The notes under the pieces: generated by a model | The model's database searches: none | What the model was told of the DNA's origin: nothing | The model's input: the letters and a program-made list of their open reading frames with translations, nothing else | Shown: positions 4,282-34,963 of the stretch, one piece after another | Layout of the letters: each line of letters begins with the position of its first letter | Numbering within the stretch: the stretch's first letter is position 1 | Program-made: the position numbers and the translations under genes | Source: Deinococcales bacterium | GTDB taxonomy: Bacteria; Deinococcota; Deinococci; Deinococcales; JAAFIG01 | Reading direction: 5' to 3' | DNA length: 64,000 nt | Assembly (NCBI GenBank): GCA_043778225.1 | Contig: JAYWGM010000015.1 | Span: 1-64,000 of the forward strand

Positions 4282-7200
4282 ATGTCCGATAACCCCGCAA
4301 CCTTAACCCATAATCTCGAGCAATCCTTAAAACCTAGGCGCTTTGCCCATTTGCACCAGCACACGCAGTACAGCTTACTAGACGGGGCGGCTCGAGTTAA
4401 AGACCTGCTCAAATGGGTCGCTAAAACCAGCCCAGATAATCCAGCCCTTGCCATGACCGACCACGGCAATATGCACGGCGCAGTCCAGTTTTTTAAGTAT
4501 GCCAAGGAGGCTGGAGTCAAACCAATCATTGGTTACGAAGCCTATGTTTCGGCTGGCTCGAGGTTTGACCGTATTCAGCGCCGTGATGTGGATGGTGGCT
4601 ACTATCATTTAACGCTGCTGGCAAAGGATTTTAAGGGTTATCAGAATTTGTGTAAGCTTGCCAGTATTGCCTATCTCGAGGGGTTTTACCAAAAACCACG
4701 TATTGACCGCGAAGTGCTGGCTTTGCACCGTGAAGGGATTATCGCCATGAGCGGTTGCCTTGGCGCAGAAGTGCCAAATATGATTCTCCACGACCGACTC
4801 GAGGATGCCGAAGCGCGATTACAGTGGTACTTGGCGACTTTTGGCGATGATTACTACATTGAAATCCAGAACCATGGGCTGCCCGAGCAGCAAAAAGTCA
4901 ATCCAGTCCTGAAAGCATGGGCAGCCAAATACGGAATCGGAATGGTTGCTACCAACGATGGACATTATGTGCGCCATGAAGATGCGTATGCCCATGAGGT
5001 GCTGCTGGCAATTCAAACCAAAGCGCTGATGTCCGAAGAAAAACGCTTTAAGTTTAGCTGCGAAGAGTTCTATGTCAAAACTCAAGCCGAGATGGAAAAT
5101 CTGCTTCCCTCAAGTCAATGGGGCGACGAAATTTATGACAACAGTTTTTCAATTGCCGAAAAATGCAATCTCGAGTTACCGATTGGTTCAAAGCGCGTTT
5201 ATCAAATGCCAGCCCTGCCGATTCCAGACGGGCGCAGCATGGCAGAAGAACTGCGGGTACAAGTTTACCGAGGCACAATGCAGCGCTATCCTAAGGAATT
5301 CACGCTCGAGTTGCTGCAAGAATACGCCACCCTATCGCTGGAGAAACTAGACCCTGCAACTTGTGAAAATGTCCTGTCCCGAACCGTAGGGGCGGGCGAC
5401 CCTGCCCGTGAGGTGCGTGTATTGGGTCAAGACAGGCTTGCCTCGCCTTTGCCCGAAACGTTGTCTGCCTCGCCTAATACGCCAATGCTCGAGGCTGGTG
5501 CAAATCAGGGCGACCACAAGGGTCGCCCCTACGAAAAACAGGTTCAAAACCTGAATCTCGAGCAAATTATTTTATTGCTGGCTTTTGTTGGCGAAATTTG
5601 GCTCGAGCAGTCCAAAGACCGAAAATACACCCAATATCTGGCGCTTGACCAACTCGAGGCAGACCCCGAAATGGTGGCAAAACTCGGGCAGAGTTTGGTG
5701 GTTTTGCGCCGTGCCGAGTACGAACTTGGTGTGATTATCCGCATGGGTTTTCCAGATTACTTTTTGATTGTGGCAGACTTTATTAACTGGGCAAAAGACC
5801 ACGGCATTCGCGTCGGTCCTGGGCGTGGTTCGGGGGCGGGTAGCCTTGTGGCGTATGCGCTCAAAATCACCAATCTTGACCCCATCGGTTACGGCTTGTT
5901 GTTCGAGCGTTTTTTGAACCCCGACCGTGTCTCGATGCCAGATTTCGATGTGGACTTTTCGGATTCACGGCGCAACGAAGTGATTAATTATGTGCGCGAT
6001 AAATACGGCGACGACAAAGTGGCGATGATTGCGACCTACGGAACAATGTCCAGCCGTGCTTGTTTTAAGGACGTGGCTCGAGTCTTGGAGTTGCCGTATG
6101 CCGAAGCTGATAAACTCAGTAAACTTGTGCCAGTTGTCTTTGGCAGGGCGCTCAGTTTAGAAGATGCCGAAGAAGCTGTACCGGACATCAAAGCAATGCT
6201 CGAGGCAAACCCAGCCACCCGTAAAGTCTATGAAATCGCCAAGAATTTGGAAGGTCTAACCCGCCACTCGAGTATCCACGCTTCGGGTGTGGTGATTGGG
6301 CGCGAACGGCTCGATAACATTGTGCCACTGATGCGTGGTGGCTCGGACGAAGGCGTGGTCTGTCAGTACGACATGAACAGTGTCGAGGACATTGGTTTGA
6401 TCAAAATGGATTTTTTAGGCTTGCGGACGCTTTCTTTTCTCGAGGAAGCAGTGCGGATTATTAAAGAATCTAAAGGGGTCAGCCTTGAGCCAGATGATTT
6501 TCCGTTGGATGATGCCAAGACTTACGATTTGGTCTCGAGAGGCGAAACCAAAGGGGTTTTTCAACTCGAGGGCGGTGGCATTACCGATGCGGCGCGTAAA
6601 CTCAAACCGCGTCGGATTGAGGATATAAATGCCCTCTCGGCGCTCTATCGTCCGGGTCCAATGGATAACATTCCAGCTTACATCGAGCGCCACCACGGGC
6701 GCGAACAAGTGCGCTATGACCAAGGCGAGTTTAACTTGCCAAAATCAGAGCCACTATTGCGCCCGATTCTCGAGGAAACTTACGGCATTCCAGTCTACCA
6801 AGAGCAAATCATGCAGATTGCCTCGGCTGTGGCTGGTTATACGCTTGGACAAGCTGATTTGCTTCGCCGGGCGATGGGCAAAAAAAAGCTCGATGAGATG
6901 GAAAAAGAACGGGTTAAATTTGTGGCTGGCGCTAAAGCTGTTCATTCCATTCCTGAAGACGAATCAGCCCGCCTTTTTGGTATTCTCGAGAAGTTTGCCA
7001 ATTATGGATTTAATAAATCTCACAGCGCCTCTTACGCATTACTTTCATTTCAGACAGCCTACATCAAAGCCCATTTCCCAGTCGAGTTTATGGCGGCGCT
7101 TTTAACCATTGAGCGCCGAAACTCCGATAAAGTCGCCGAATACATCGCCGACGCACGGCAAATTAAACTCGAGGATGGGCAACTGATGCAAGTCTTGCCG

Positions 7201-8340
7201 CCAGACATTAACCGCTCGAGTACCGATTTTAAGGTTGTGGGCGAACAAATTTTGTTTGGCTTGTTTGGGGTCAAATCGCTTGGCGAAGAAACCGCCATCG
7301 CCATTCTCGAGGAACGCGAACGGGCTGGAGTGTTTAAGTCCTTAGCCCATTTTTGCTCGAGAATGCAAGCCACTGGCTTAAATAAGCGCTGGGTCGAATT
7401 TTTGGTCAAGTGTGGTGCGTTTGATGTCTTTGGCACTCGAGAAGCGCTGCTCGAAAGCGTTGAGGAAGCAATTGAATACGCCAATGGGCAAGCCGACATG
7501 AATTCCCAAGGCATGGACAGTTTATTTGGCATGGCAACGATTGCCCCTGAGCCAAAATTAAAAGTTATCCCACAACCCACTGACGACGAAGAATCTCGTT
7601 CTCGAGCCATTGCCCGTTTACAATTTGAGAAAGAAGCGGTTGGCTTGTACATCTCGGGGCATCCGCTTGAGCATTACCCCGGAATGCTCGAGGCGGCTTC
7701 TTGTAAGGTCGCGCACTGCGAAGTCTGGTTTCACACCTCGAGCGCCGCAGTGGGCTATCGTGGGCGCAAACGGGCGGTCTTGGCGGGCATGATTAGCGGC
7801 GTGCAGCGTAAACCGACCAAATCTGGCGGCATGATGGCGCGGTTTATTCTGACCGACGATGCTGGGGCTGCCGAACTGGTGGCGTTTAGCAGGGCTTACG
7901 ATAAAATTAACGACAAGTTAATCGAGGATTCGCCGGCGCTGGTGGTGGTCGAAATCGAACCCGACGGTGAAGACGGTGTGCGCGTCACAGTCGAGGAATT
8001 GCTGCATTACTCTGAAGCCAAAGAAATGCCAAAAACCCTAGCCCTCGAGATGAATTTAGATTCCCTCGAGCCAAGTATGTTGGCGCATCTGGACGAAATG
8101 CTCCAGATGCAGGATGGAATCGCCAATATCCCGATTCATTTGCGCTTACTTGGCAACGATGCTTTTGAGATTTGGGAACTGACCCATAAAGCCTCGGATG
8201 CAACTTTGCAGCGCCTAAAACTCGAGTGTCCGTGGCTCAAAGTCGGCATGGGCATCAGCGGCGAAGCGGTGTTGGCTAAAACCATGCCACCAAAAAAAGT
8301 ATGGGAAGGAAAGCCTAAAATGGCTCGAGTGGAGAACTAA
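4282..8340 (+). CDS. dnaE: DNA polymerase III subunit alpha
   Basis: PHP domain HLHQHTQYSLLDG, GPGRGSGAGS, SMPDFDVDF, KMDFLGL, C-terminal OB fold. Confidence 0.98.
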   Translation: MSDNPATLTHNLEQSLKPRRFAHLHQHTQYSLLDGAARVKDLLKWVAKTSPDNPALAMTDHGNMHGAVQFFKYAKEAGVKPIIGYEAYVSAGSRFDRIQRRDVDGGYYHLTLLAKDFKGYQNLCKLASIAYLEGFYQKPRIDREVLALHREGIIAMSGCLGAEVPNMILHDRLEDAEARLQWYLATFGDDYYIEIQNHGLPEQQKVNPVLKAWAAKYGIGMVATNDGHYVRHEDAYAHEVLLAIQTKALMSEEKRFKFSCEEFYVKTQAEMENLLPSSQWGDEIYDNSFSIAEKCNLELPIGSKRVYQMPALPIPDGRSMAEELRVQVYRGTMQRYPKEFTLELLQEYATLSLEKLDPATCENVLSRTVGAGDPAREVRVLGQDRLASPLPETLSASPNTPMLEAGANQGDHKGRPYEKQVQNLNLEQIILLLAFVGEIWLEQSKDRKYTQYLALDQLEADPEMVAKLGQSLVVLRRAEYELGVIIRMGFPDYFLIVADFINWAKDHGIRVGPGRGSGAGSLVAYALKITNLDPIGYGLLFERFLNPDRVSMPDFDVDFSDSRRNEVINYVRDKYGDDKVAMIATYGTMSSRACFKDVARVLELPYAEADKLSKLVPVVFGRALSLEDAEEAVPDIKAMLEANPATRKVYEIAKNLEGLTRHSSIHASGVVIGRERLDNIVPLMRGGSDEGVVCQYDMNSVEDIGLIKMDFLGLRTLSFLEEAVRIIKESKGVSLEPDDFPLDDAKTYDLVSRGETKGVFQLEGGGITDAARKLKPRRIEDINALSALYRPGPMDNIPAYIERHHGREQVRYDQGEFNLPKSEPLLRPILEETYGIPVYQEQIMQIASAVAGYTLGQADLLRRAMGKKKLDEMEKERVKFVAGAKAVHSIPEDESARLFGILEKFANYGFNKSHSASYALLSFQTAYIKAHFPVEFMAALLTIERRNSDKVAEYIADARQIKLEDGQLMQVLPPDINRSSTDFKVVGEQILFGLFGVKSLGEETAIAILEERERAGVFKSLAHFCSRMQATGLNKRWVEFLVKCGAFDVFGTREALLESVEEAIEYANGQADMNSQGMDSLFGMATIAPEPKLKVIPQPTDDEESRSRAIARLQFEKEAVGLYISGHPLEHYPGMLEAASCKVAHCEVWFHTSSAAVGYRGRKRAVLAGMISGVQRKPTKSGGMMARFILTDDAGAAELVAFSRAYDKINDKLIEDSPALVVVEIEPDGEDGVRVTVEELLHYSEAKEMPKTLALEMNLDSLEPSMLAHLDEMLQMQDGIANIPIHLRLLGNDAFEIWELTHKASDATLQRLKLECPWLKVGMGISGEAVLAKTMPPKKVWEGKPKMARVEN
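5385..5533 (+). repeat. GTAG-type REP doublet (REPIN-like) in frame within dnaE
   Basis: Terminal inverted repeat CGTAGGGGCG...CGCCCCTACG. Right hairpin GGGCGACC-ACAAG-GGTCGCCC; the left hairpin is interrupted by a 39-bp element. Confidence 0.85.
5397..5435 (+). mobile_element. 39-bp mini-element, single copy inside the REP in dnaE
   Basis: CGACCCTGCCCGTGAGGTGCGTGTATTGGGTCAAGACAG, 37/39 identical to the reverse complement of 34909..34947. Confidence 0.85.
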
Positions 8341-9375
8341 ATGAAGCCACCTCGAGCCAGCCTGAGTTTACGAACCGTACTGGTGTTGTTTTTGACTGCC
8401 CTGACGCTATTCCCAACAGTCGGTGTGGCTTTTTCGTTGATATATTCTGGACAACTTCGCTTTGAGCCTTGGCTGCTGATTTGGGTGGTTGCCCTGACCG
8501 TTTTTTCGGTGGTGGTTGGTCTGATTGCCGCCAGTACCCTGCTTAAACCACTTTTTGTGTTGCGTGATGAACTTAAAAAACTTGCCAATCGTCAAGAGCG
8601 GCTTGCCAGTCTCGAGATTGATGCAAGCAGCGAGCATCCAGTCGAGGTGCGAACCCTACGCCAAGCCTTTGCTAATCTGCTCGAGGCGCTGCGGACCGAA
8701 AACCATAAGCGCGGTGCATTTATGGCAACGCTGGTGCATGACCTCAAAACCCCGATTATTGCTGCCAATCATGCTTTAAGTGCGATCGAACACAACGATA
8801 ATTTATCTCGAGCCGAGCGGGTTACTTTGGTCAAGAGCATTCAACTCGAGAACCAAGCCCTGCTGACTTTGGTACAAAAAATGGTCGATGCCAACCGTTT
8901 TGAACGCGATGATGTGGTGTTACAACTCGAGCCAGCCGATTTAAGAAGCATTGCCGAAAGTGTGGTGCAAAGACTTTTGCCACAAGCCCAAGAACGCAGC
9001 ATCGCGGTCAGTCTCGAGGGCGAAGGTATGGCATTGGTGGCACGAAAAGAATTTGAACGAGCGCTGCAAAATTTACTCGATAACGCGATTCGATATGCCC
9101 GAAGCAGCGTACAAATTCGGCTCGAGAATGCCCGAATGACAGTTTCGGACGATGGCGCTGGACTGCCAGACAGTTTAGAACAACTCTGTAAGCCGTTTAA
9201 CTCCGAGCGGGTGCTGATGGCTGGGCGCGAATACACCAGTGGTACGGGCGGCTTGGGGTTATTTATTGTTTACCGCATTGCCGAGTTGCACGGTGGGACG
9301 CTCGAGCATTTACCCACCCAATCGGGGGCTAGTCTTTCGATTAGACTGCAAAGTACAACCAGTGTTGTATCGTGA
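8341..9375 (+). CDS. Sensor histidine kinase
   Basis: Two TM helices, HAMP-like linker, LVHDLKTP H-box, QNLLDNA N-box, DDGAG, GLGL. Confidence 0.95.
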   Translation: MKPPRASLSLRTVLVLFLTALTLFPTVGVAFSLIYSGQLRFEPWLLIWVVALTVFSVVVGLIAASTLLKPLFVLRDELKKLANRQERLASLEIDASSEHPVEVRTLRQAFANLLEALRTENHKRGAFMATLVHDLKTPIIAANHALSAIEHNDNLSRAERVTLVKSIQLENQALLTLVQKMVDANRFERDDVVLQLEPADLRSIAESVVQRLLPQAQERSIAVSLEGEGMALVARKEFERALQNLLDNAIRYARSSVQIRLENARMTVSDDGAGLPDSLEQLCKPFNSERVLMAGREYTSGTGGLGLFIVYRIAELHGGTLEHLPTQSGASLSIRLQSTTSVVS

Positions 9376-9382
9376 GGGTATC

Positions 9383-9970
9383 GTGCGACCTCGAGTGATT
9401 ATTGTGGATGACCACCCGCTTTTTCGGGTCGGTTTAAGTTATGCCCTAAAAGCCCTTGATTTCCATGTGGTTGCTGAAGCCATAGATGGCGCAGATGGCG
9501 TGCGGCGTTGTCTCGAGTTGCAGCCCGATGCGGTGCTGCTGGATGCCAAAATGCCAATTATGGATGGCTTAGAAGCCTGCCGTCAAATTCATGCTGCCCA
9601 ACCCGAAATTCGGATTTTGATGTTGACCACTTTTTCCGAAGCCGCCTTGGTTCACGCGGCTCGAGTGGCTGGGGCAATTGGTTTTGTCTCCAAAGAAACC
9701 GAAGCCTTGCGCCTTGCCGATTTAATTCGTAAAGCCATCGCCGACCCAAACTTTGTGCATTTCCCAAAAATAGACCTACCTAAACTTTCAAACCGAGAAC
9801 TCGAGGTGCTAAGAAGCATGGTACTTGGGCGCAGCAACAAAGAAATTGCCAAAGAACTCGGGCTGAGTCCAGACACGATCAAAGACCACCTCGAGAATGT
9901 TTACCGAAAACTCGAGGCGCAAGACCGAGTGACCGCCAGCCAACGCGCTCGAGATTTGGGGTTTGTGTAA
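9383..9970 (+). CDS. NarL/LuxR-family response regulator
   Basis: IIVDDHP, LLDAKMP receiver domain, LSNRELEVL...SNKEIA HTH. Start reassigned to GTG at 9383. Confidence 0.93.
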   Translation: MRPRVIIVDDHPLFRVGLSYALKALDFHVVAEAIDGADGVRRCLELQPDAVLLDAKMPIMDGLEACRQIHAAQPEIRILMLTTFSEAALVHAARVAGAIGFVSKETEALRLADLIRKAIADPNFVHFPKIDLPKLSNRELEVLRSMVLGRSNKEIAKELGLSPDTIKDHLENVYRKLEAQDRVTASQRARDLGFV

Positions 9971-10055
9971 AGAGCATAGGGTTAAAAGGGAAAAGGTTAA
10001 AAGTAAAGCGGTTTTAACTTTTAACCTTTTCTACTTTTTACCTTTTTCCCCTGCT
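9971..10055. repeat. Purine/pyrimidine heptamer-type hairpin repeat between convergent genes (probable terminator)
   Basis: AGAGCATAGGGTTAAAAGGGAAAAGGTTAAAAG...CTTTTAACCTTTT...CCCCTGCT; same ends as 19668..19822. Confidence 0.7.
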
Positions 10056-10056
10056 T

Positions 10057-11553
10057 CTAGTGTTTGAAATGTCTCGAGCCAGTCAAGACCATACTGATGC
10101 CCAGTTCGTCGCAGGCAGCAATCACTTCTGGGTCTCGTTTTGCTCCTCCGGGTTGTAAGATTGCCACCACGCCAGCTTTGGCGGCTAGGCGCACAACATC
10201 ATCGAATGGAAAGAAGGCTTCGGATGCCAAGACGCTGCCGCTTGCTTTTGTACCAGCGTTGCCAATGGCGCGTTCGGCTGCCCAAATGCGGCTGACTGCA
10301 CCAGCCCCTAAACCAACCGTGACGCTATTTTTGACCAACACAACATTGTTGCTTTTGGCGTGTTTGGTGATGTAAAAAGCAAACTCGAGGTCTTGCCATT
10401 CTGCGGCGGTGGGTTGGCGCTGGGTCACGACTTCCGGACACAGGTCTGACCAAACCCTCGAGTCACGATTTTGCACCAAAAATCCACCCGCCATTTGTTT
10501 GTACTCGAGGCTTGAGAAAGCATTCTTTCCGGCTTCTAAAACCCGCAAATCTGGCTTTTTGGCTTTGAACCACTCGAGCGCGTCGGGTGTAATTTGGGGG
10601 GCAATTAAAACCTCTAAAAATGTGCCTTTGGTAGCCTGTGCCACCTCGAGTGTGACAGGGCGGTTGAGCGCTACCACACCGCCAAAAACCGAAAGTGTAT
10701 CGGCATCTCGAGCCAATTCCCACGCTGTTTGGGGGTTGTGTGCAAGTGCCACACCGCATGGATTGGCGTGTTTGACCGCCACACAAGCCGGACTCGAGAA
10801 CTCTGAAACCAGCGCCCAAGCGGCATCTGCATCGGCATAATTGTTAAATCCCATCTCTTTGCCAGACAGCACCAGCGCATCCATAACTGTGCCTTGTTCG
10901 TCACCAAAACGGTAAAGCGCGGCTTGTTGGTGCGGGTTTTCGCCGTAGCGTAAAGTTTTTAAGTGGCTTAACTCGAGTGGTTGCTGAGCGTTAAAAGTTT
11001 GGTGGCTTAAATAGTTGGCAATCGCGGCATCATAACTGCTGGTGTGGGCAAAGGCTTTTCGCGCCAAGGCTTGGCGTTCTATCAGACTTGGCTTGAGGTT
11101 CTCGAGGATGCTTGGGTAGTCTTGAGGGTCTACAACCACCAGTACATTCAAAAAGTTTTTGGCACTGGCACGAATCATCGCAGGACCACCGATGTCAATA
11201 TTCTCGAGGGCTACTTCTAAAGTCACATTTTGGCGAACAGTCTCGCGGAACGGGTACAGATTGACACAAACCAAATCAAAGCGTTCAATGCCCAGTGTTT
11301 TGAGTTCAGCATTGTGTTCGGGCGTATTTTTTGCCAGAATTCCAGCATGAATTTTTGGATGCAGTGTCTTGACTCGCCCCTCGAGAATTTCTGGGAAACC
11401 TGTTACGTCAGATACATATGTGACAGGTAGATTGGCTTTCTCTAGGACCGAAAATGTGCCGCCGGTCGAAACCAAGCTAAACCCTTGCTCGAGTAGACCA
11501 CGCGCAAAATCCAGCAAACCACTTTTATCACTGACACTCAGTAATGCTCTCAC
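10057..11553 (-). CDS. purH: Bifunctional AICAR transformylase/IMP cyclohydrolase
   Basis: RALLSVSDK, GRVKTLHP, LRYGENPHQ, KHANPCG, RHFKH end. Confidence 0.98.
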   Translation of the reverse strand: MRALLSVSDKSGLLDFARGLLEQGFSLVSTGGTFSVLEKANLPVTYVSDVTGFPEILEGRVKTLHPKIHAGILAKNTPEHNAELKTLGIERFDLVCVNLYPFRETVRQNVTLEVALENIDIGGPAMIRASAKNFLNVLVVVDPQDYPSILENLKPSLIERQALARKAFAHTSSYDAAIANYLSHQTFNAQQPLELSHLKTLRYGENPHQQAALYRFGDEQGTVMDALVLSGKEMGFNNYADADAAWALVSEFSSPACVAVKHANPCGVALAHNPQTAWELARDADTLSVFGGVVALNRPVTLEVAQATKGTFLEVLIAPQITPDALEWFKAKKPDLRVLEAGKNAFSSLEYKQMAGGFLVQNRDSRVWSDLCPEVVTQRQPTAAEWQDLEFAFYITKHAKSNNVVLVKNSVTVGLGAGAVSRIWAAERAIGNAGTKASGSVLASEAFFPFDDVVRLAAKAGVVAILQPGGAKRDPEVIAACDELGISMVLTGSRHFKH

Positions 11554-11569
11554 AAGAACTCCTTAAAAG

Positions 11570-11644
11570 TGACCCAGGCGAGCGATCTCAAAAAGTTACA
11601 GCTTCCCCACGGATTGCCCGTGTTTTTCGCCAGTTGCTGCAATT
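11570..11644 (-). ncRNA. ZMP/ZTP (pfl) riboswitch
   Basis: Minus strand reads TTGCAGC-AACTGGCGAAAAA-CACGG-GCAAT-CCGTG-GGGAA-GCTGTAA...GATCGCTCGCCTGGGTC. It has P1, CUGGCG, P2 and a 3' CGCCUGGG hairpin, directly upstream of the purH RBS. Confidence 0.88.
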
Positions 11645-11731
11645 GCTTGATTCTACTTATTTCTCGAGGGACGCTCAAGTTCTAAAGCCTAGGTCATCCA
11701 ATCCAGACTTGCGTTGCGTACACAAAGATGT

Positions 11732-19044: not shown

Positions 19045-19668
19045 ATGTCAATTATTCCTTATGTGATTGAGCAAACTGGACGCGGTGAACGCGTTTACGA
19101 CATCTACTCGAGACTGCTCAAAGATCGCATTATCTTTGTCGGTACACCAATCGAAAGCCAAATGGCAAATACGGTGGTGGCACAGTTGCTGCTTTTGGAT
19201 TCACAAAACCCAGAGCGCGAAATCCAAATGTTTATTAACTGCCCCGGCGGCGAAGTCTATGCGGGTTTAGCCATTTACGACACCATGCAGTTTGTGCGTG
19301 CGCCCATCCGCACCACTTGCGTTGGCATCGCCATGAGCATGGGCAGTGTACTTTTAATGGCTGGCGAAAAAGGCAGACGCACCGCTTTACCCAACAGCCG
19401 AATCATGATTCATCAAGGCAGTGCTGGTTTTCGTGGCAATACCCCCGACCTCGAGGTACAAGCCAAAGAAGTGCTTGCCCTGCGTGACATCATGACTGGT
19501 TTATATGTCAAGCACACAGGTCAAAACACCGAAAAGCTGATGCGCGACATGGAACGCGATAACTTTATGACCCCCAACACCGCTAAAGAGTACGGCTTAA
19601 TAGACGAAGTGGTCGAAATTATGCCAAAAAGCCTTGGCGATGCGTTAAGAGGCTCAGATGAACTTTAA
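19045..19668 (+). CDS. clpP: ATP-dependent Clp protease proteolytic subunit
   Basis: [17 protein letters not shown] (catalytic Ser), MIHQ, ERD. Confidence 0.97.
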
Positions 19669-19822
19669 GAGCATGGGGTTAAACGGTCAAAAGCGACCCA
19701 GCCCGACAGGTGCATCTTTAGGGTCAAGACAGCGACCCAGCCCGACAGGTGCATCTTTAGGGTCAAGAAAGGTCAAAAGGTCAAATCCCCTCTCTTTTTA
19801 CCCTTTAACCTTTTACCCTGCT
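19668..19822. repeat. Heptamer-type hairpin repeat hosting two 39-bp elements
   Basis: AGAGCATGGGGTTAAACGGTCAAAAG[78 bp]GTCAAAAGGTCAAA...CCTTTAACCTTTTACCCTGCT. Confidence 0.75.
19694..19771 (+). mobile_element. Two tandem 39-bp mini-elements (19694..19732 and 19733..19771)
   Basis: CGACCCAGCCCGACAGGTGCATCTTTAGGGTCAAGA(C/A)AG twice, one mismatch between copies. Confidence 0.85.
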
Positions 19823-19839
19823 CCGCAGGAGCGCTTCTA

Positions 19840-21066
19840 ATGGCGCGTTGTTCTTTTTGTGGCAAAGCTGCCCACGAAGTCGAGCATTTGATTGAATCGC
19901 CACGCGGCAGTGCTTGGGTTTGTAACGAGTGTGTGGCTCAGGCGGCTTCGATGCTCAATGCCGCCAAGCCAGTTGCACCCAGTAAATCTGAGCCATTTGT
20001 ACTCGAGAATGTGCCAACCCCAAAAAGCATCAAAAAACATTTGGACGAATTTGTGATTGGGCAAGATGCCGCCAAAAAAGCCGTGGCGGTGGCGGTTTTT
20101 AATCATTACCAAAGGTTGTTGCACCCCGAAGCCGAGTTACAAAAATCAAATATCTTACTGATTGGCTCGACCGGCACAGGTAAAACCTTGATTGCCGAGA
20201 GTGTCGCACGGATGCTTGAAGTGCCATTTGCAATTGCTGATGCCACCACTTTAACCGAGGCTGGCTATGTTGGCGATGATGTCGAAAATGTCTTGGTGCG
20301 CTTACTTCATGCGGCGGGAATGGATGTCGGCAAAGCCGAGCGCGGCATTATTTATATTGACGAAATTGATAAAATTGCCCGTAAATCTGAATCGGCAAGC
20401 ATCACCCGCGATGTCTCGGGCGAAGGGGTACAACAAGCGCTCTTAAAGTTGCTCGAGGGGACAGTTGCCAATGTGCCACCGCAGGGTGGGCGCAAGCATC
20501 CCGGCGCAGAATTGGTCACAATCAACACCAAAAACATCTTGTTTATTTGTGGTGGGGCGTTCGATGGTCTTGAGACAATTGCTAAGGCACGACTTAACCA
20601 AAACATTGTGAGTTTTGCTCGAGTGGCGGCTAACCAAACCAAATTGCTCGAGTTTATTCCCGAAGACCTGATTAAATTCGGCATGATTCCAGAGTTTGTG
20701 GGGCGTTTACCGTTGGTTGTGGCATTGCAAACCCTTGATGAAGCTGCCCTGATTTCGATTTTAACCGAACCCAAAGGCGCATTGGTCAAGCAGTACAAGC
20801 AACTCTTTGGGTTGGCTGGAGTCAAACTCGAGTTTAGCCTCGAAGCCCTTAAAGAAGTGGCGGCTCGAGCCATCGGGCGTGGTACAGGAGCGCGTGGCTT
20901 ACGGGCGGTTCTCGAGCCAATGATGACCGAAATGATGTTTGAATTGCCGTCTGATGGCATCAGTAGCATCAGCATTGAGCCAAAACACTTAGATGCACCA
21001 CTTGAAGCGTTACCGACGCAGCATATGTTACAACTTGAGTCTAGTACACTCAAGAAGAGCGCTTAA
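19840..21066 (+). CDS. clpX: ATP-dependent Clp protease ATP-binding subunit
   Basis: CSFC...CNEC zinc finger, [33 protein letters not shown]. Confidence 0.97.
21034..21054. promoter_or_regulatory. HAIR (HspR-associated inverted repeat) upstream of lon
   Basis: Perfect CTTGAGT-N7-ACTCAAG, inside the clpX 3' end about 260 bp before lon. Confidence 0.8.
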
Positions 21067-26436: not shown

Positions 26437-26520
<84 letters not shown>

Positions 26521-27278: not shown

Positions 27279-27766
27279 AAGCTGTTTTCTCGAGAAGTTG
27301 GACTGATGTTTTTGGCACTGCCTTTATTCACCTCGAGGGTGGTACAGGAGAACAAACCGTGCTGCTGCTTTGTCCGCTCGAGCATGGGCAGATGATTTTA
27401 GATATGCTCAAGAAATTTATATGGTTCAAAGGACGCATTACCTTAGCGGTACTCGAGCAAAACCACAGCACACTGATAGAAGCTGCCATACGTTTTCTCG
27501 AGCCAAAGAAAGTTGTTGCGCTTGATGCTGAACAGATTGTTTCAAGCAGCGATGCGTTGCACCTCGAACCACAAGTTTTTATCAGCAGCACAGGACTCGA
27601 GTACAGACATGGCGGGAATTTTGCTGCGTGGGACTCGAGTTTAGGGATTGAAGGCGTTCATGGCTCGAGTCTATTGGCAAGTGCAAGCGGCACAAATTCG
27701 GTAATTGCCTGTCATCCCCGAGAATTAAACTCGGTACTCCAAACCATTTTTACTGTTTTCGCTTAG
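27203..27766 (+). CDS. Hypothetical protein (start uncertain)
   Basis: Fills the gap between neighbouring genes; no recognisable motif. Confidence 0.5.
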   Translation: MASRITLADTPRTLSAIQSLFGDVLKAVFSRSWTDVFGTAFIHLEGGTGEQTVLLLCPLEHGQMILDMLKKFIWFKGRITLAVLEQNHSTLIEAAIRFLEPKKVVALDAEQIVSSSDALHLEPQVFISSTGLEYRHGGNFAAWDSSLGIEGVHGSSLLASASGTNSVIACHPRELNSVLQTIFTVFA

Positions 27767-29247
27767 AAACTCATCGTTCTACGAAACAACCGCGCCTCAA
27801 AAGCCCCCCAAGTTGGCAACACTCGTAAAATAGGAGCATGAGAAACACTCGAGAGTTTAATCCCCAAATTCTCGAGAACTCTATCCACGCCTTGGTCACG
27901 CCCAGTGTTAAACAGCGCGTACTCGGCATCTGGAATCATAAAATCTGGTTGGATTTTACTGGGCAACGGTGTGCCATCAGTCCAAAAAGCCCGAACTGTT
28001 GGCATTGAAGCTGCGCCTCCATTGGCAAGGGCAAAACGAAACGTATTGGTATCCCCAATTCCAGTCGTGGTTAGCCCTGTAATCGGAGCGCGTTTAGCCC
28101 GTTGCACCCGACTGACCAAATACTCGCAAGCGCTGGCACAACCACCATCCACCAACAAACCCAATGCGCCCTTGTACAAAACAGGGTTTTTGACGCTGGT
28201 GCGCCCCAATTCAACCCCTGAAAGTTTACGGAAAACATACGTGCCAGTCTCTTTTAACCAGATTTCTTCATTGGTGTTCTTATCAGGATTGTAACGCGGC
28301 ACAAACCGAATAGGCTCTGGATTATCCATAAAAGCACCCAAAGACATCAGGCTTTCAGAAGCATAACCACCTCGGCTACCACGCAAATTCAGCATAATCG
28401 CTTTGACCTCTTTATCCATTGCGATTTTGACAAGATTATGAACCTGTTGAGCGACACCCAAAACCAGAAAATCCGTAATTTGAATCATCGCAACATTATT
28501 TTCATCAATAAACATTGTCGGAAAAGGCGCAGCGTTAATAATCTCACCATTGACTTCGATGTTCACCGGTGTTTTACTCGAGCCACGCAGAAAATGAAAA
28601 ATCAGTTTTTCTCGAGCCTGAGTTTTTGAAGTCAACGCACTCAAAAAGGTTGCATAATCCGTAACAGCCGTAAAACTCGAGAAGTATGTGTTGTTGTACC
28701 CAATCCATCTATCGCCGTACCGAAAACCCGCTTTTTCGGCAGGACTTCCCGCCACGACATTTAACACCAAACGATCAAAACCCTGAAGCACCACTTCTTT
28801 CTTAGCAATTAACTCGAGTAAAGCAGGTGAAAAACCACCAATCGGAACAATTTGCTTTTGGTATTCGGCAAACGCCGCATGACTAAACCCCAAGCGCGGC
28901 GAAGGCGTTGTGACCGTACCAGTGCTTTGCTGATTTTCGGCTGCCAGCACCGCAGGACTCATGTAAAAAGCATGAAGGTCTTGGAGTTCATCCATCATCG
29001 TCGCAACAACAAATTCAACCGTTTCATAACTGCATTGCAATTGTGCCGTCGCACAAACCTTATCCACCTCGAGTTGATACTTGGCAATTAGGGACAGCAT
29101 ATTGACCTGACTAGGACCAAAATACTGAGTCTCGAGGAAAAAAGCAGCTTGGTCAAATAAATCTTGGGCTGGACTACCAATGAATTTTTGAGCAAAAACT
29201 GAACTCGAGAAGACAACAACACTTAAAGCCAAAAGAAATCTCTTCAT
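27763..29247 (-). CDS. S41-family peptidase with PDZ domain
   Basis: Signal peptide MKRFLL, GSPAEKAG PDZ, NLRGSRGG, ASACE. Confidence 0.88.
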   Translation of the reverse strand: MKRFLLALSVVVFSSSVFAQKFIGSPAQDLFDQAAFFLETQYFGPSQVNMLSLIAKYQLEVDKVCATAQLQCSYETVEFVVATMMDELQDLHAFYMSPAVLAAENQQSTGTVTTPSPRLGFSHAAFAEYQKQIVPIGGFSPALLELIAKKEVVLQGFDRLVLNVVAGSPAEKAGFRYGDRWIGYNNTYFSSFTAVTDYATFLSALTSKTQAREKLIFHFLRGSSKTPVNIEVNGEIINAAPFPTMFIDENNVAMIQITDFLVLGVAQQVHNLVKIAMDKEVKAIMLNLRGSRGGYASESLMSLGAFMDNPEPIRFVPRYNPDKNTNEEIWLKETGTYVFRKLSGVELGRTSVKNPVLYKGALGLLVDGGCASACEYLVSRVQRAKRAPITGLTTTGIGDTNTFRFALANGGAASMPTVRAFWTDGTPLPSKIQPDFMIPDAEYALFNTGRDQGVDRVLENLGIKLSSVSHAPILRVLPTWGAFEARLFRRTMSF

Positions 29248-29324
29248 AGGCATTTTATAAAAGCTAGGCAACTCAGTAAACAGACTGGTTTTTGACCTGA
29301 AACAACCTAAGAATCAAAGCAAAA

Positions 29325-32033
29325 TTAATACTGTGCCATTGGCAACAAGTCATCACGTGGAATGATAAAGCTACCTTGGGTTGTGCCTTGTGGTGCAAAT
29401 TTCTCGAGTTCACGTTGCAGGGTTTTAGCATCCATTTTACCCTCAAGCGCCTTGCGGTATGCCCGAACTGTAGCTTGCAGCGCCTCGGGGCTTTCTTGAA
29501 CAAATTCAAGGCGATAATGTCCAATTCCAGCCTTGACCCAAGTCTCGAGAAAACGCCCACCGCTTTGCGCTCGAGCCTCAAAAACCGTGTTGCGGCAACC
29601 GACATCCGCCATCACAGGATGCTCAAAGCCATTGTGGTCACGAAGTGCAATGCTGTGCGTTTCGCAAGGATGCCCACAATTGGTGTGGTCAGTGCCACTA
29701 CTCATGAACCGACAAAATACGCAGTGTTCGGTGTGAAACACGGGAAGATGATGATGCAAAATAACCTCGAGTTTACTTGCATCCACTTTTTTTGCCAACT
29801 CGAGAATCTGCGCGGCATTCAGGTCATGAGTCGGTGCAAGTCGAGACAAACCCATCTCGAGAAGATGCGATGCTGTCAGCGCATTAGCAGCATTCAGACT
29901 AAAATCGCCAAGTAGCTCTGGGCGTTTATTCGTCTCGAGCAGTGTATGCAGCAGCCCAAGCGGACGTACCAAAATCGCATCCACAGGCAAAGAGAGCAAG
30001 AAGGTGTGTATCCGCTCCTCGGCGGGTTTTAAGACCCGAGGACTGGCAACCACAGCCCGAATTCCAGACTCGAGGATTCGTTCGACGCTAGGACGCAAAC
30101 CGTATAACTCGAGGTAATCCAGTACAATTTCGTTCGGACGGGTTTCAATGGCAGCCTCGAGTTGCTCGGGTTTCCTGACGAGGACTGAAAGGAACGGAGC
30201 GGGTAAACTCCCCCCAGCGCTTCGCGCTGACCCCCTGTCTTGCCCCAGAAGCAGCACCTGTCTTGCACTTGGAGCAGCACCTTCGGGCTTTGTGCGCTTC
30301 GGGCTTTGGGCGCTCGTTGAGGAGGTTTTTGGCAATACATTTTTGTTAATGGTTCGGTGTGGTACTTCTCGGCGTAACTCGAGGAGCTTATCCACGGCTT
30401 CACGACGGGCTTTTCCTAGGCTCGAGAGTGGTAGAAAACACCCATCCTCGAGGTCTACTTCCAAGGTCTCGAGGTAGAACGGAGTCTCACCAAGTTTACC
30501 GAGTTCAACTTCGAGCGCTCGAGCATCCAAGGCGCGGCGCTCGGCGGGTTTTAGGACATCTTCAGTTTGGCTGGTGGCGGTATGTCCAACATCATCGGTC
30601 ACGGTTAGCTCGAGCGGCGCACCCATTTTACCGATTACTTTCCACTGCACAGGTTTTCTCGAGACTGCTTTGGTGGCTTGGGTAAACCCACGAAGTTCTC
30701 GTTCGATACTTGGGTCGTTTGAACGCCAAACCCAATCGCCTCGTTCAATATTCTCGAGTCGCACTGCCTTATTACCAAATCGGAGTTCGACTTCGTGCAG
30801 TCCACGTGAATCCTCGAGTCGTACCGAACCGCGCCTTGTGTATTCAAAAACTTCAAAAACCGCGCCGCCTTCTTCTCGGTTCTGCGGACTTTGGCGTTGT
30901 GCCGCATCAAAAACCAGTCCATCGCCTGGTTTAATCACGCCCACACCACCCAGCGCGTACTCTCCCTCGAGTTCAACCAGCACGGCTGTTCTCGAGACAT
31001 CCACCACTGTTCCAACTTTTGTTCCTCGATGACGTGGCGCTCGACCATGCACCACCGTCTGATGATTCACACCCTGCATAAACGCTGGCAGCAAGCCTCT
31101 CGAGTACACGCCCTCGAGCAAAAATTTAGTTTCCCGTAGGGGCGAATCTTGTATTCGCCCTGCCCCATTCACGCCCTGTGTTCGCCCTGCCCCGTCCACG
31201 CCATGTTCATTCCAAGCCGAGTCTATCGCCAACCGATACGCATTGGTTGCGGCTGCCACGTACTCGGCATCTTTGTAACGCCCTTCAATTTTGAGGCAAT
31301 CCACCCCAATCCGAATTAATTCTGGAATCTGCTCGAGGGCAAATAAATCTTGTGGCGACAGTAAATACCGAAACTCGCCAAGGTCGCGCTGCAAACCATC
31401 CACCATCAGGTCATAGGGCATTCGGCAAGCCTGAGCGCACGCGCCGCGATTTGCGCTGCGTCCGCCCCAGGCTTCGGAACTAAAGCATTGCCCAGAGTAC
31501 GAAACGCAGAGCGCTCCGTGAACAAAAACCTCGAGTTCAAGGTCAGTGGCTTTTTTAATCAGTTCAATGTCTTTGAGGCTCAGTTCTCGAGCCAGCACCG
31601 CCCTCGAGACTCCAAGGCTGCGGGCGAGTTCTGCGCCTTCAGCACTGGTGATGGTCATTTGGGTACTGGCATGAATGGGGAGTTCAGGGGCTATCTGGTG
31701 GGCTAATCGAATCGCGCCAATATCTTGCACAATAATTGCATCTGCACCAGATTCGGCTATTCCCTCAATCTCTTCTACGAACACCTCGAGTTCCGAGTCA
31801 AAGACCAAGGTATTGACTGCTACAAATGCCATCACACCACGTTCATGCAGCATTGCCACGACATCTGACAAGTTTTCGTGGTTAAAGCTCATGGCTTTGG
31901 CTCGAGCATTAAAGCCTTCTAAGCCAAAGTAGACCGCATCTGCACCTGCTTCTATGGCGGCGTGCAATTGCGGCATTCCGCCGGCTGGACTCATCAGTTC
32001 AGGTTTACGGGGTACTCGAGACATAAACGGCAT
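29325..32033 (-). CDS. U32-family peptidase-like protein, long form (RlhA-like RNA hydroxylase family)
   Basis: ELMSPAG, HASTQM, EVFVHGALCVSYSGQC, NRGACAQACR, KIEGR, second C-terminal U32 repeat. Confidence 0.9.
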   Translation of the reverse strand: MPFMSRVPRKPELMSPAGGMPQLHAAIEAGADAVYFGLEGFNARAKAMSFNHENLSDVVAMLHERGVMAFVAVNTLVFDSELEVFVEEIEGIAESGADAIIVQDIGAIRLAHQIAPELPIHASTQMTITSAEGAELARSLGVSRAVLARELSLKDIELIKKATDLELEVFVHGALCVSYSGQCFSSEAWGGRSANRGACAQACRMPYDLMVDGLQRDLGEFRYLLSPQDLFALEQIPELIRIGVDCLKIEGRYKDAEYVAAATNAYRLAIDSAWNEHGVDGAGRTQGVNGAGRIQDSPLRETKFLLEGVYSRGLLPAFMQGVNHQTVVHGRAPRHRGTKVGTVVDVSRTAVLVELEGEYALGGVGVIKPGDGLVFDAAQRQSPQNREEGGAVFEVFEYTRRGSVRLEDSRGLHEVELRFGNKAVRLENIERGDWVWRSNDPSIERELRGFTQATKAVSRKPVQWKVIGKMGAPLELTVTDDVGHTATSQTEDVLKPAERRALDARALEVELGKLGETPFYLETLEVDLEDGCFLPLSSLGKARREAVDKLLELRREVPHRTINKNVLPKTSSTSAQSPKRTKPEGAAPSARQVLLLGQDRGSARSAGGSLPAPFLSVLVRKPEQLEAAIETRPNEIVLDYLELYGLRPSVERILESGIRAVVASPRVLKPAEERIHTFLLSLPVDAILVRPLGLLHTLLETNKRPELLGDFSLNAANALTASHLLEMGLSRLAPTHDLNAAQILELAKKVDASKLEVILHHHLPVFHTEHCVFCRFMSSGTDHTNCGHPCETHSIALRDHNGFEHPVMADVGCRNTVFEARAQSGGRFLETWVKAGIGHYRLEFVQESPEALQATVRAYRKALEGKMDAKTLQRELEKFAPQGTTQGSFIIPRDDLLPMAQY
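30235..30312 (-). mobile_element. Nested pair of 39-bp mini-elements, in frame in the U32 gene (inner copy 30258..30296)
   Basis: Minus strand: CGCCCAAAGCCCGAAG[CGCACAAAGCCCGAAGGTGCTGCTCCAAGTGCAAGACAG]GTGCTGCTTCTGGGGCAAGACAG. Confidence 0.82.
31136..31205 (+). repeat. GTAG-type REP plus 27-bp tandem duplication, in frame in the U32 gene
   Basis: GTAG-GGGCGAAT-CTTGT-ATTCGCCC hairpin; encodes GVDGAGRTQ-GVNGAGRIQ-DSPLR on the minus strand. Confidence 0.75.
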
Positions 32034-32078
32034 TGTCTCATGAATCGGTGAGAGGTTAAGCGTGTAAACTGGGAATAG

Positions 32079-33170
32079 ATGACAACGTTTCTAAAAAGCA
32101 TTCAGATTGAGGGCTTTAAGTCTATCCGTTCGAGTACCCTCGAGTTACGACCTTTGAATGTGCTGATTGGGGCGAATGGGGCTGGGAAATCCAATTTTAT
32201 TTCGTTTTTTAAGATGCTTAACCAAATTGCAAATGGCGAATTTGCATTCTGGGTTCAAAAATCAGGTGGAGCAAGCAGTTTGTTACACATGGGAACTAAA
32301 GTTACAAGCAAAATTTCGGCTTTGCTGACGTACCAAATAGACGAGGCGGAGTTGAATTATCGTTTTGAGATTGACCATGTTCTTGCAGGTGATGGATTCA
32401 TTTTTGAGGACGAGCATTCTTGGTATAAAACCCAAGAGCGACCATACATAATGGCTACTTCAACAGAATCGCGTTTGCTTAATGCTGCTCTGAGTAACGA
32501 CCAAGCTGGATTACAAATTCGTAAGCTATTGCTCGAGAATCGTCCTTATCAATTCCATGATACTAGCGATACTGCGTATATGAAGCTAACAGGGACATTA
32601 GATGATGATGTTTTTCTAAAGTCAGATGCTGGGAATCTGGCTGCGGTACTGTTTCGCTTGAAGAGTTTTCACCCAAAACATTACCAAAAGATTCTAAGAA
32701 CAATCCAACTGAGCGCACCTTACTTTAAGGATTTTGTACTCGAGCCGAATGGACGAAATATTCGGCTTCGTTACCTCGAGTTTGGTTCGGAAACTGTTTA
32801 TGGTGCGTATCAGCTTTCTGATGGAACATTGCGACTCATGGCACTTTTGACATTGCTTTTGCAACCATTAGAATCCTTACCAAGCACCATTTTAATAGAT
32901 GAACCCGAACTTGGCTTACATCCTCATGCCCTCGAGACAGTGCTTTCAGTGATGAGAAGTGTTGGTGGTGAGAAACAAATTATTATTGCAACTCAATCTG
33001 TTTCGATTGTGGATCGGCTCGAGCCAGAGGATATTATTGTTGCCCAACGCCATGGTTCTGAAACTCAGTTTACTCGTCTTGATGCGACCAGACTTGAATC
33101 TTGGCTCGAGGAATACAGCCTTGGCGAACTCTGGGAGAAAAATGTTCTGGGTGGGAGACCATCTCGATGA
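32079..33170 (+). CDS. ABC-type (AAA_21-like) ATPase
   Basis: GANGAGKS, LSDGT signature, IDEPELGLHP, ATQS. Confidence 0.9.
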   Translation: MTTFLKSIQIEGFKSIRSSTLELRPLNVLIGANGAGKSNFISFFKMLNQIANGEFAFWVQKSGGASSLLHMGTKVTSKISALLTYQIDEAELNYRFEIDHVLAGDGFIFEDEHSWYKTQERPYIMATSTESRLLNAALSNDQAGLQIRKLLLENRPYQFHDTSDTAYMKLTGTLDDDVFLKSDAGNLAAVLFRLKSFHPKHYQKILRTIQLSAPYFKDFVLEPNGRNIRLRYLEFGSETVYGAYQLSDGTLRLMALLTLLLQPLESLPSTILIDEPELGLHPHALETVLSVMRSVGGEKQIIIATQSVSIVDRLEPEDIIVAQRHGSETQFTRLDATRLESWLEEYSLGELWEKNVLGGRPSR

Positions 33171-33865
33171 AACGCTTAAACATTTTGACGGAAGGTCAGA
33201 CTGAAGAAAAATTTGTCTGGGATTTACTTGCGCCGCATTTGGCAAACTTTGAAATCGTGGTCAATGCACGTTGCATCATTACTGGAAAAACACGTCCGTT
33301 TCAGGCAAATGGCAATCGTCAAAACAAACTTCACAAAGGCGGTCTGATAGATTTTCCGCAAGTGTCAAGAGACTTACAACGTTGGCGCAATGAAGATCCA
33401 CAAGCCACGCTGACCACAATGTTTGATTTATATGCCCTACCTGACGATTTTCCCTTGTACCAACAAAGTATAAACCAACCTCCTTCAGTAAGGGTTGAAT
33501 CACTTGAGCAAGCATTTTTAGACGAGCTTGGATTATCAAATTTCGTTCCGTATATTCAACTGCATGAATTTGAAGCCCTCTTATTTTCGGATATTCAAAC
33601 CCTTAATACCATCGTTGCTAGAGATTCAAAATACCCCGAGCAAACGTTGCGGCAACTACAAGAAATCAGTCAATCGTTTGAAAATCCAGAACTGATCAAT
33701 GACTCACCGATAACTGCTCCCTCAAAACGCCTCTACTCAATTTTTAGCGAAAAATATCAAAAGACTTCCGAAGGAAATGATGTGGCGATTCTAATCGGCT
33801 TAGAAAAAATCCGCGCCCAATGCCCACATTTTAATGCGTGGGTCACGAAGCTCGAGAATATCTAA
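33167..33865 (+). CDS. DUF4276-family (TOPRIM-like) protein
   Basis: ATGA overlap with the ATPase; [36 protein letters not shown]. Confidence 0.8.
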
Positions 33866-34818
33866 GCCAATTCTTCAAATACCCCGAGTTTACGAAACCG
33901 CTCGGCTCGAGATTCCAGCAATGCCGTATGGCTCATCCCGTTCATCTGCTCGAGATGATTTAACAACGCTTTTTTAAGTTCTTCACTCGAGCCTACAGGG
34001 TCGTTATGCGCCCCGCCTTTGGGTTCTGGAATCACCTCGTCCACAATACTGAACTGCTCGAGGTCACGCGCTGTTAAACGCAGTGCCTCGGCTGCTTTCG
34101 AGGCTTCTTTGGCATCACGCCAAACAATTGCAGCACAAGATTCTGGACTAATCACACTGTAAACCGCATTCTCGAGAATTAACACGCGGTTGCCGACCGC
34201 AATTGCCAGCGCTCCGCCGCTACCGCCCTCGCCGATGATGACACTAATTACTGGCACGCGAAGCCGAGTCATTTTTTGGATACTTTGTGCAATCAACCAA
34301 GCCTGTCCGCGTTCCTCAGCCGCAATTCCGGGGTATGCCCCGGGGGTATCCACCAAGGTAATTAAAGGCAGCCCAAACTTATCTGCCATGTCCATCAAGC
34401 GCATGGCTTTACGAAACCCTTCTGGGTGCGCCATACCAAAATTCCGTGCAATGTTCTCCTTGGTATCGCGTCCTTTTTGCTGCCCAATCAGCACCACCGC
34501 CCGACCCTCGAGCCGCGCAAGTCCACCAACTATCGCAGAATCCTCGCCGTAAGCCCGATCTCCGTGCAATTCCTGAAAATCCGTGAAAATCCGCCCAATA
34601 AAATCCAATGCCGTCGGACGACCCGGTGCTCGAGCCAACTGCACCCGTTGCCAACGCGATAACTTCTCGTAAGTCTCCGAACGAAGCCGTTCAAGGCGCT
34701 TCTCGAGCAGCGCCAATTCCTCGCTCATGTCAACATTGCTGCTGCTGCCATATGCCTTTAACTCCTCAATTCGAGTCTCGAGGTCAACAATAGGTTTTTC
34801 AAATTCAAGTGCTGGCAT
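33862..34818 (-). CDS. accA: Acetyl-CoA carboxylase carboxyltransferase alpha
   Basis: [29 protein letters not shown]. Confidence 0.97.
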
Positions 34819-34885
34819 AAAAACTCCAAGGTGAAAGGGGAAAAAGGGAAAAAGGGAAGAAGGAATGTGGTCCTAAACTTTTAAC

Positions 34886-34963
34886 CTTTCTTGACCCCAA
34901 AGATGCACCTGTCTTGAACCAATACACGCACCTCACGGGCAGGTTCGCTTGTGGGCTGGGTTG
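34886..34963 (-). mobile_element. Nested pair of 39-bp mini-elements between accD and accA (inner copy 34909..34947)
   Basis: Minus strand: CAACCCAGCCCACAAG[CGAACCTGCCCGTGAGGTGCGTGTATTGGTTCAAGACAG]GTGCATCTTTGGGGTCAAGAAAG, within heptamer repeats at about 34826..34990. Confidence 0.85.

Follow-up and report, generated by a model that had tools for sequence, protein, structure and literature searches.

A family of small structured DNA segments, here called 39-mers, is mobile and non-autonomous, inserts into its own copies and is physically linked to an RNA-guided recombinase of the IS110 family. Seven copies lie in the window, a stretch of 64,000 nucleotides (nt) that corresponds to contig C15:1-64000 of the source genome of a Deinococcales bacterium (G000; 4.03 Mb, 107 contigs, 48.7% GC; other G numbers denote comparison genomes and L numbers fetched loci), and about 100 copies are present in that genome as a whole. 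Exact filled and empty orthologous sites, covariation of paired bases and enrichment of targets beside hairpin loops bear out the core of an earlier, sequence-only reading of the window, which had proposed a non-autonomous, structured, self-nesting mobile element.

To our knowledge, mobile DNA this small is on record in very few cases and its mechanism is unsolved, a question that has stood for the Nostoc small dispersed repeats (SDRs) since 2008. Here there is direct evidence of mobility for so tiny a DNA; the family combines clean filled and empty sites with strong covariation and a linked recombinase, and recombinase, bridge RNA and 39-mer offer a testable route to how such elements move.

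Insertion, structure and spread of the 39-mers

All seven window copies were confirmed at the positions first assigned to them. The pattern AGGTGC-N11-CAAGAMAG matches the window seven times, against 0.11 +/- 0.35 matches expected, and none of 100 shuffles reaches seven. The copies and the hairpins of the repetitive extragenic palindromic (REP) type that host or adjoin the first of them are as follows.

5397..5435, + strand: 39-mer in frame in dnaE, read as ..DPAREVRVLGQD.., splitting a GTAG-type REP
5386..5447, + strand: the host GTAG-type REP hairpin, GTAGGGGCGGG / GCTTGCCTCGCC, split by that 39-mer
5508..5532, + strand: second REP of the dnaE linker, empty in G000, with an independent 39-mer in G002
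19694..19732, + strand: 39-mer, first member of a tandem pair, within an GGTCAAAA octamer array
19733..19771, + strand: 39-mer, second member of the pair, directly after the first
30258..30296, - strand: 39-mer, inner copy of a nest within the U32 peptidase open reading frame (ORF; 29325-32033, - strand)
30235..30312, - strand: 39-mer, outer copy of that nest, split at AG/GTGC by the inner copy into a 3' half (30235-30257) and a 5' half (30297-30312)
34909..34947, - strand: 39-mer, inner copy of an intergenic nest, within 34886-34963
34886..34963, - strand: 39-mer, outer copy of the intergenic nest (halves 34886-34908 and 34948-34963), in an A-rich repeat array

Key evidence for insertion comes from three orthologous sites at which filled and empty alleles differ by exact 39-mer insertions, with no target duplication and with a boundary ambiguity of a shared G or AG at most. 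At the first REP of dnaE, G000 reads GTAGGGGCGGG, 39-mer, GCTTGCCTCGCC, and the G003 ortholog is identical minus 39 nt. The second REP, 110 nt downstream of the first, is empty in both G000 and G005, and G002 holds a different 39-mer there, placed exactly between GAG and GTT (GGGCGAACACGAG, 39-mer, GTTCGCCCCTAC). Upstream of the gene at 19840, an uninterrupted GGTCAAAA array in G006 stands opposite the two tandem copies of G000.

The junctions are equally regular. Among 86 copies in G000 with at most two mismatches, the base at -1 is G in 85, that at -2 is A in 62 and G in 16, and that at +1 is G in 57, so that the AG/G junction first noticed in the window is upheld genome-wide. The 3' end of the element itself is AG in most copies, and stays AG even at GG or TG targets. 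A CT core (AG on the opposite strand) accordingly stands at both sides of the 39-mer without any other duplication, as is the case for a donor of the IS110 type. The suggestion that the element uses its own AG/GTGC as a target and so builds nests likewise extends to the genome, in which 19 of the 86 copies are nested at AG/GTGC of another copy and five lie in tandem right behind one.

Copy number was estimated by a genome-wide scan that scored 18 fixed positions. In G000 this found 32, 26, 19 and 19 sites with zero, one, two and three mismatches, respectively, background setting in from four mismatches (75 sites). When intact copies were excised and the genome was rescanned, 106 calls were obtained, comprising 90 intact copies, 14 with one nested copy and two with two; three of the 14 single-nest calls are artefacts, being misparsed 38-nt tandem pairs. 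The further copies sought in relatives were found as well. Every one of the 19 source-family genomes (five genera) contains a 29-nt core pattern, at 1-152 matches per genome, with 0-1 for a reversed-pattern control. In a sample of 301 genomes of the phylum, only the source family and one genus of a neighbouring family, g36 (12 copies in G197 and 41 in G253), give more than two matches, and the remainder of the sample has 0-2 matches each, which is chance-like.

In a scan that took one genome for each prokaryote species, the matches listed were mostly records titled 'MAG: Deinococcales bacterium' (MAG, metagenome-assembled genome), together with single matches in unrelated taxa that, among the matches listed, carry no head, stem or tail of a 39-mer. 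Sixteen pattern matches in viral contigs, none with head, stem or tail, were taken as chance. Thus no 39-mer was found outside the source family and g36 in the 301 genomes of the phylum, among the listed matches of the species scan or in the viral contigs. The source lineage is known only from MAGs. The sequence-only reading had not recognised the repeat as a described Deinococcota family, and none of the families of Rfam covers it.

The 39-mer is 37-40 nt long, its tail reading CAAGA, then 0-1 further nt, then AG; the length of exactly 39 nt first ascribed to it is true of all seven window copies but not of the family. From head to tail, CGAC.. is followed by an outer stem that covaries, by the conserved inner hairpin GCCCG-NN-AGGTGC and by CAAGA(N)AG. 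An alignment of 33 copies drew on the window and on named Deinococcales MAGs, records of other taxa having been dropped by title, not by structure. Its invariant positions are C1, G2, C10, C11, A15-C20 and C32-A36; fewer positions are fixed than the window copies had implied, with C1, C10, C11, A15-C20 and C32-A36 remaining of those. The fold consists of an outer stem (2-7/27-32) and an inner stem (8-11/16-20) with T18 bulged and a GNNA loop as its cap, in outline one composite hairpin rather than two subterminal ones.

The proposed covariation of the stem is sustained across this alignment and genome-wide. Paired cells make up 92.1% of the alignment against 79.8 +/- 1.3 in shuffles, a value that 0 of 500 shuffles reach, and 24-42% once the partners are shifted. 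At pair 3-31, 23 copies have A-T, seven C-G and three G-C, and none is unpaired. Double changes are seen in five of ten pairs, with 36 cells changed on both sides, and one-sided changes are absent from pairs 3-31 to 6-28. RNAalifold recovered the same fold, and in G000 alone (64 unique sequences) 89.4% of cells are paired against 82.0 +/- 0.8. Covariation in the outer stem is Watson-Crick only, without G-U intermediates; their absence is weak evidence for a role of the hairpin at the DNA level. In another subfamily (..GAGCAAGA), read by eye, inner hairpin and tail are retained, but the inner stem is longer and the outer stem is missing.

Targets and hosts

The other 62 copies of the 86 (54 with full flanks) represent 47 distinct host contexts in G000 that are not nests. 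These are loops of GTAG-type REPs, a second hairpin family (CCCCTCAACGAG/GGGG..), GGT(N)AAAA arrays and an element of about 200 bp with terminal inverted repeats (TIRs). For 20 of the 47 contexts, the loop of a hairpin with dG at or below -5 is no more than 3 nt away, compared with 373 of 3000 random RGG sites (12.4%; p = 3e-7) drawn genome-wide rather than from intergenic DNA. The claim that every copy lies in a hairpin repeat is therefore right as to a preference for hairpin loops but wrong as a rule, many copies being situated in unstructured A-rich octamer arrays or in the 200-bp TIR element. A narrower rule that places insertions at the 3' end of the loop was rejected, the raw minimum-free-energy class being found at 16 of 47 contexts and at 440 of 1500 random RGG sites, which is no difference; significance was reached only with the stricter criterion of dG and distance given above.

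Some hosts are themselves repeated together with their guest. A composite of REP and 39-mer, about 75 nt long, occurs at three loci in G000, including C30 and C33, and also in relatives, and hitch-hiking of this kind accounts for part of the copy number of the 39-mer. The 200-bp element has TIRs of about 20 bp (ATACCRAATTAACTTAATCA-like), is situated at many contig ends and carries one to three 39-mers at fixed sites; in G000 it is found at C12:1-230, C71:1-200, C98:44440-44650 and the ends of C55 and C60. No transposase could be assigned to it.

The co-orientation with local transcription that the window copies display fails genome-wide, with 26 copies in the same orientation as neighbouring genes and 18 in the opposite one, which is no bias. 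Nor is there a bias relative to local GC skew (30:33), the skew itself being weak. A crude ORF test places 11 of 65 loci inside genes, six sense and five antisense.

Within genes the 39-mer can be accommodated as coding sequence, and through 13-codon insertions it reshapes essential proteins such as DnaE. Both the dnaE copy and the 78-nt nest of the U32 peptidase gene are in frame and lie in linkers. The dnaE window at 5380-5540 (codons ~367-420) encodes a variable linker that separates the PHP domain from the polymerase domain and comprises two in-frame GTAG-type REP hairpins; the REP segment is wholly missing in G008 and differs in length among other relatives. At the site of the U32 peptidase nest, relatives have a GTAG REP instead. 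Its place is taken in the window by the second hairpin family (CCCCTCAACGAG / GGGGTCGCCG..), at 30200-30235 and 30313-30330, a frequent host of 39-mers that is also found at C48:83096, C86:64105 and C86:68036 of G000.

Intergenic arrays of A-rich 7-8-mers (GGTCAAAA, GGTTAAAA, GGAAAAA) extend over window positions 19650-19835 and 34830-35000, with orthologs at L075, L077 and L081-L084. Each is followed by a complementary T-rich array, resulting in long imperfect inverted repeats that differ between species. Elsewhere in the window, a ZMP/ZTP riboswitch was detected at 11565-11647 on the - strand (Rfam, 49 bits against a gathering score of 39).

An IS110-family element at the nest site

The window contains no visible mobilising gene, as the sequence-only reading had stated, but elsewhere in G000 an IS110-family insertion sequence (IS) is tied base for base to the 39-mers, and an aside in that reading on the CT core of IS110 elements thereby became its most useful lead. 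The recombinase has both Pfam domains of the family (DEDD_Tnp_IS110, 2.9e-23; Transposase_20, 3.8e-18). The IS occupies the innermost copy of a triple nest, ..CCCGTAAG/IS/GTGCATC.., and contig C101 carries the same triple nest without it. Across nine genomes of the source family and G253, all 19 readable right junctions, and all nine left junctions caught by a regular expression, place the element at ..GNNAG/IS/GTGC.. of a 39-mer. The site at which the IS110 inserts and the site at which 39-mers nest are the same phosphodiester.

The basis of this homing can be read from the RNA upstream of the recombinase, for which Rfam has no model. It forms a stem with an internal loop whose 5' side is GCACC(U) and whose 3' side is GUCC-GNNAG, and these two sides equal both strands of the 39-mer site, CT core included. 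The 3' guide of this target-binding loop matches the variable loop of the host 39-mer in eight of eight IS110 copies, through five variants of guide and loop (TAAG, TTAG, ATAG, CGAAG and TCAG). Judged by these matches, the resident IS110 clade demonstrably recognises the 39-mer via its bridge RNA. The guide tracks its target loop through all five variants, a natural retargeting of a bridge RNA that may be of interest to those who engineer bridge recombinases. In a ninth IS110 (G253, L066, C489) the guide differs at two of seven positions and mismatches the right flank; since the flanking 39-mer halves come from different subfamilies, this copy has probably been rearranged by recombination between IS copies.

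Homologues of the recombinase at least 62% identical to it are restricted to the source family (9 of 19 genomes) and G253 of g36. Identity to the next relatives, from other Deinococcota, does not exceed 51%; these are sited in other targets and have a plain donor loop closed by a stem CGAAC/GTTCG; the donor guides were assigned by eye through comparison with these relatives. Two other IS110 clades (L050, L051) were considered and have no 39-mer-like ends.

The resident clade departs from the plain donor loop in two ways. In type A (G000, G004) the donor loop has a 10-nt extra segment. This segment, GTCTAAATTA on the RNA strand (L022 1947-2060, G000:C26), is extra in comparison with type B and with the relatives of at most 51% identity, and might be the remnant of a decayed 39-mer. 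In type B (L025 of G013, L026 of G016, L027 of G012, L028 of G015, L029 of G005, L030 of G009 and L066 of G253) a whole 39-mer is present in the donor-loop DNA, at ACGG-CT/../CT-GCC. The type B inserts belong to three different subfamilies at the same site, and are nested in G253 and tandem in G012. Recombinase frames are intact in several type B copies, and the copies are in different targets. In G013, G016, G012 and G009 the inner hairpin of the embedded 39-mer is altered (GCCCCGTCAGGTGGC) and, from its sequence, would no longer match the target guide of its own IS110.

Possible routes of movement

Our best guess, to which we assign a probability of about 35%, is that an IS110-type bridge recombinase moves the 39-mer in trans. 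The opposite strand of the element reads CT-[body]-CT, the core signature of IS110. In such a process the 39-mer would offer its conserved ends as a minimal donor junction and its conserved inner hairpin as a target site for IS110; copying of one strand would yield a tiny single-stranded circle, its ends drawn together by the stem, which would then be pasted at CT cores while the donor copy stays in place. An IS110-type mover is favoured by this signature, by the identity of nest site and IS110 site, by the covariation of guide and host loop, by conserved blocks that map to a donor junction (ends) and a target site (middle), and by the distribution that the IS clade and the 39-mer share.

Work on related systems supplies possible precedents for several of these steps. 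For IS621, a 22-bp donor is reported to suffice in PMC11208160. Excision of a single-stranded circle by IS621, and a donor-only 'half-match' recognition that explains off-target insertion, are both described in bioRxiv 10.64898/2026.08.31.748434. Findings of this kind remove the objection that 39 bp cannot circularise. Top-strand insertion is reported in an excerpt of 10.1101/2025.10.25.684509, and a target stem-loop is named as a specificity determinant in one of 10.64898/2026.03.19.712850.

Several observations weigh against an IS110-type mover. Among the bridge RNAs recovered, none was found whose donor-binding loop matches both ends of the 39-mer: the resident donor loop matches the IS110's own ends (by eye, its left-donor arm equals the 39-mer at three of seven bases), and type B loops hold a copy of the 39-mer end and core, not a second guide. 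No more than 9 of the 19 family genomes and one of two g36 genomes have the clade that targets 39-mers, most assemblies being fragmented, and it was not found in the one-contig G018 (eight copies of the 39-mer), the five-contig G197 (12) or G001 (83). The targets outside nests share only RG/G, far below what a bridge RNA usually specifies, and the loops of nest hosts in G000 are GTCAG, GTGAG, GAAG and GCAAG, against the GTAAG that the resident guide specifies. Finally, those bases of the putative donor arm that are furthest from the core vary between subfamilies with the stem kept, which looks like recognition of structure rather than pairing with a guide.

A bolder statement of the IS110 route, tentative and on balance doubtful, is that the 39-mers may be the smallest known RNA-guided mobile elements, that is, folded bare IS110 donor junctions with a bridge-RNA target site mid-element, pasted at CT cores as single-stranded circles of about 39 nt. 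Were this so, the system would run both ways, the IS110 homing into 39-mers and the 39-mers colonising, and perhaps redirecting, the IS110's donor-binding loop.

Much of the same evidence could be accommodated by an HUH/Y1-type transposase acting on single-stranded DNA by 'peel and paste', of the IS200/IS605 kind or like the REP-associated tyrosine transposases (RAYTs), or by an unrecognised similar enzyme. Such an enzyme would bind the folded 39-mer, cleave 3' of AG at each end and insert the piece after an AG that is exposed in single-stranded DNA, and the IS110 would merely use the 39-mer as a safe landing site. Insertion without duplication 3' of a motif as short as RG, a right end that remains AG at GG or TG targets, and targets that are over-represented next to hairpin loops or belong to A-rich arrays devoid of structure would all follow, and the conservation of structure rather than sequence, with covariation by Watson-Crick pairs only, fits a DNA hairpin.

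Against this stands the failure to find a cognate HUH transposase among the genes of G000 and its relatives. The sole Y1 gene of G000 belongs to a tnpA-tnpB element of the ordinary kind, whose hairpin ends are unrelated; G000 yielded no RAYT, and there is no Y1 match in G001 (83 copies), G008 or G010 (148 copies). RAYT-like genes of relatives are flanked by GTAG REPs, never by 39-mers: of ten regions with weak Y1 hits, about seven have GTAG-REP-like repeats beside or flanking the gene, and none is flanked by 39-mers. No gene in G000 has inverted 39-mer flanks of its own, the one inverted pair enclosing CrtC-like, TetR and ADH genes. The even distribution relative to GC skew also speaks against an HUH/Y1 route, although the skew is weak, and the identity of nest site and IS110 site would have to be a coincidence, at odds of roughly 1 in 6 from the count of CT dinucleotides. 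Taken together, these points make an HUH/Y1 mover possible but rather unlikely. Inverted GTAGGGGCGCTGCTTGCTGCGCCC repeats around RAYT-like Y1 genes, the REPtron arrangement, are present at L211 (G013:C257), L213 (G016:C136) and L205-L209; a clean inverted REP pair is seen in two of the regions (L211, L213), and the REP of L210 holds an inserted 39-mer.

It is improbable, though conceivable, that the family reflects passive spread, in which a few old insertions would have been multiplied within larger mobile repeats, by slippage and by gene conversion, with little or no transposition today. GTAG REPs, the 200-bp TIR element and the IS110 would be the carriers, and slippage would produce the tandems. 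The composite of REP and 39-mer, the 39-mers borne by a TIR element that ends many contigs and the frequent identity of tandem copies are all in keeping with such a history. So is the absence of indel alleles from Logan contigs of two likely source samples, which is weak evidence, contigs breaking at repeats; circle junctions were likewise not seen in these contigs, which for that reason says little. Passive spread is difficult to reconcile with 47 distinct non-nest contexts in one genome, with nests that mix subfamilies whose stems still pair correctly, with independent insertions into two REPs of one gene, dnaE, in two species, and with three subfamilies at the same site of an IS110 bridge-RNA gene.

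Least probable is the RNA intermediate contemplated in the sequence-only reading and proposed for the Nostoc SDRs, in which a folded 39-nt RNA would be reverse-spliced or reverse-transcribed into new sites: the GNNA loop and bulge of the inner hairpin have an RNA-like look and the SDRs are a precedent, but orientation is unbiased relative to genes (26:18), the covarying pairs lack G-U intermediates, and the single reverse transcriptase (RT) gene of G000 has a defence-like context. That gene (L067, G000:C65:8296-11742) encodes 447 amino acids (aa), adjoins an unannotated gene of 201 aa and resembles a defence-associated RT pair; no RT cognate to the 39-mer was found among the genomes searched. 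Of the enzymes whose co-distribution had been proposed as a clue, only an IS110 clade is thus linked to the 39-mers, whereas RAYTs flank GTAG REPs and the RT appears defensive.

Comparison with known systems

The cyanobacterial SDR1-8 of Nostoc, reportedly described by Elhai et al. in 2008, are said to measure 21-27 nt. Like them, the 39-mer is very small, conserves its structure by compensatory changes, nests in itself and lies in short tandem repeat arrays and other repeats. The SDR elements are named in a passage of PMC4390886. The 39-mer differs from them in length, 37-40 nt against 21-27 nt, and in belonging to a different phylum; moreover, exact empty sites and an associated IS110 are documented for it. 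Within its own phylum, small mosaic noncoding repeats (SNRs) are described for Deinococcus radiodurans in part of PMC1978522. For the 39-mer pattern, genus g6 (inferred to be Deinococcus) has at most two chance-like matches, in 7 of 100 sampled genomes. Full-text searches found no description of such elements in the source lineage.

Rickettsia palindromic elements (RPEs) are selfish DNA carried in frame within genes, and are several times longer than the 39-mer. Both show that hairpin repeats can be tolerated in frame in essential genes, here in dnaE and the U32 peptidase gene. We know of no report that RPEs nest in themselves, as the 39-mer does. RPEs are named in a portion of PMC3733652.

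REP superfamilies are distinguished, according to PMC3733652, as palindromes of 20-40 bp that bear an unpaired tag, GTAG or CGTC, at one end. The 39-mer has neither tag, its head being C1 G2 with G2-C6 paired. It is further unlike REPs, bacterial interspersed mosaic elements (BIMEs) and REP doublets forming hairpins (REPINs) in that the RAYT genes of the source family flank GTAG REPs and not 39-mers. The 39-mer thus works in the manner of Nostoc SDRs and REPs, but, with no tag and no RAYT, is not a REP; rather, it parasitises GTAG REPs and nests in itself.

Short hairpin REPs, sometimes intragenic, are also described as targets of IS110-family elements in PMC1525189 and PMC11208160, and homing of the IS621/ISPpu9/ISPpu10 type into REPs under the guidance of a bridge RNA is documented in parts of PMC11208160, PMC12288879 and 10.64898/2026.03.19.712850. 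The resident IS resembles these in having both IS110 domains and a guide-bearing upstream RNA, and in homing into a hairpin repeat. It is unlike them in that it targets a 39-nt element which is mobile in its own right and nests in itself at the same site, and in that the IS carries, in seven genomes, a 39-mer within the DNA of its own donor-binding loop.

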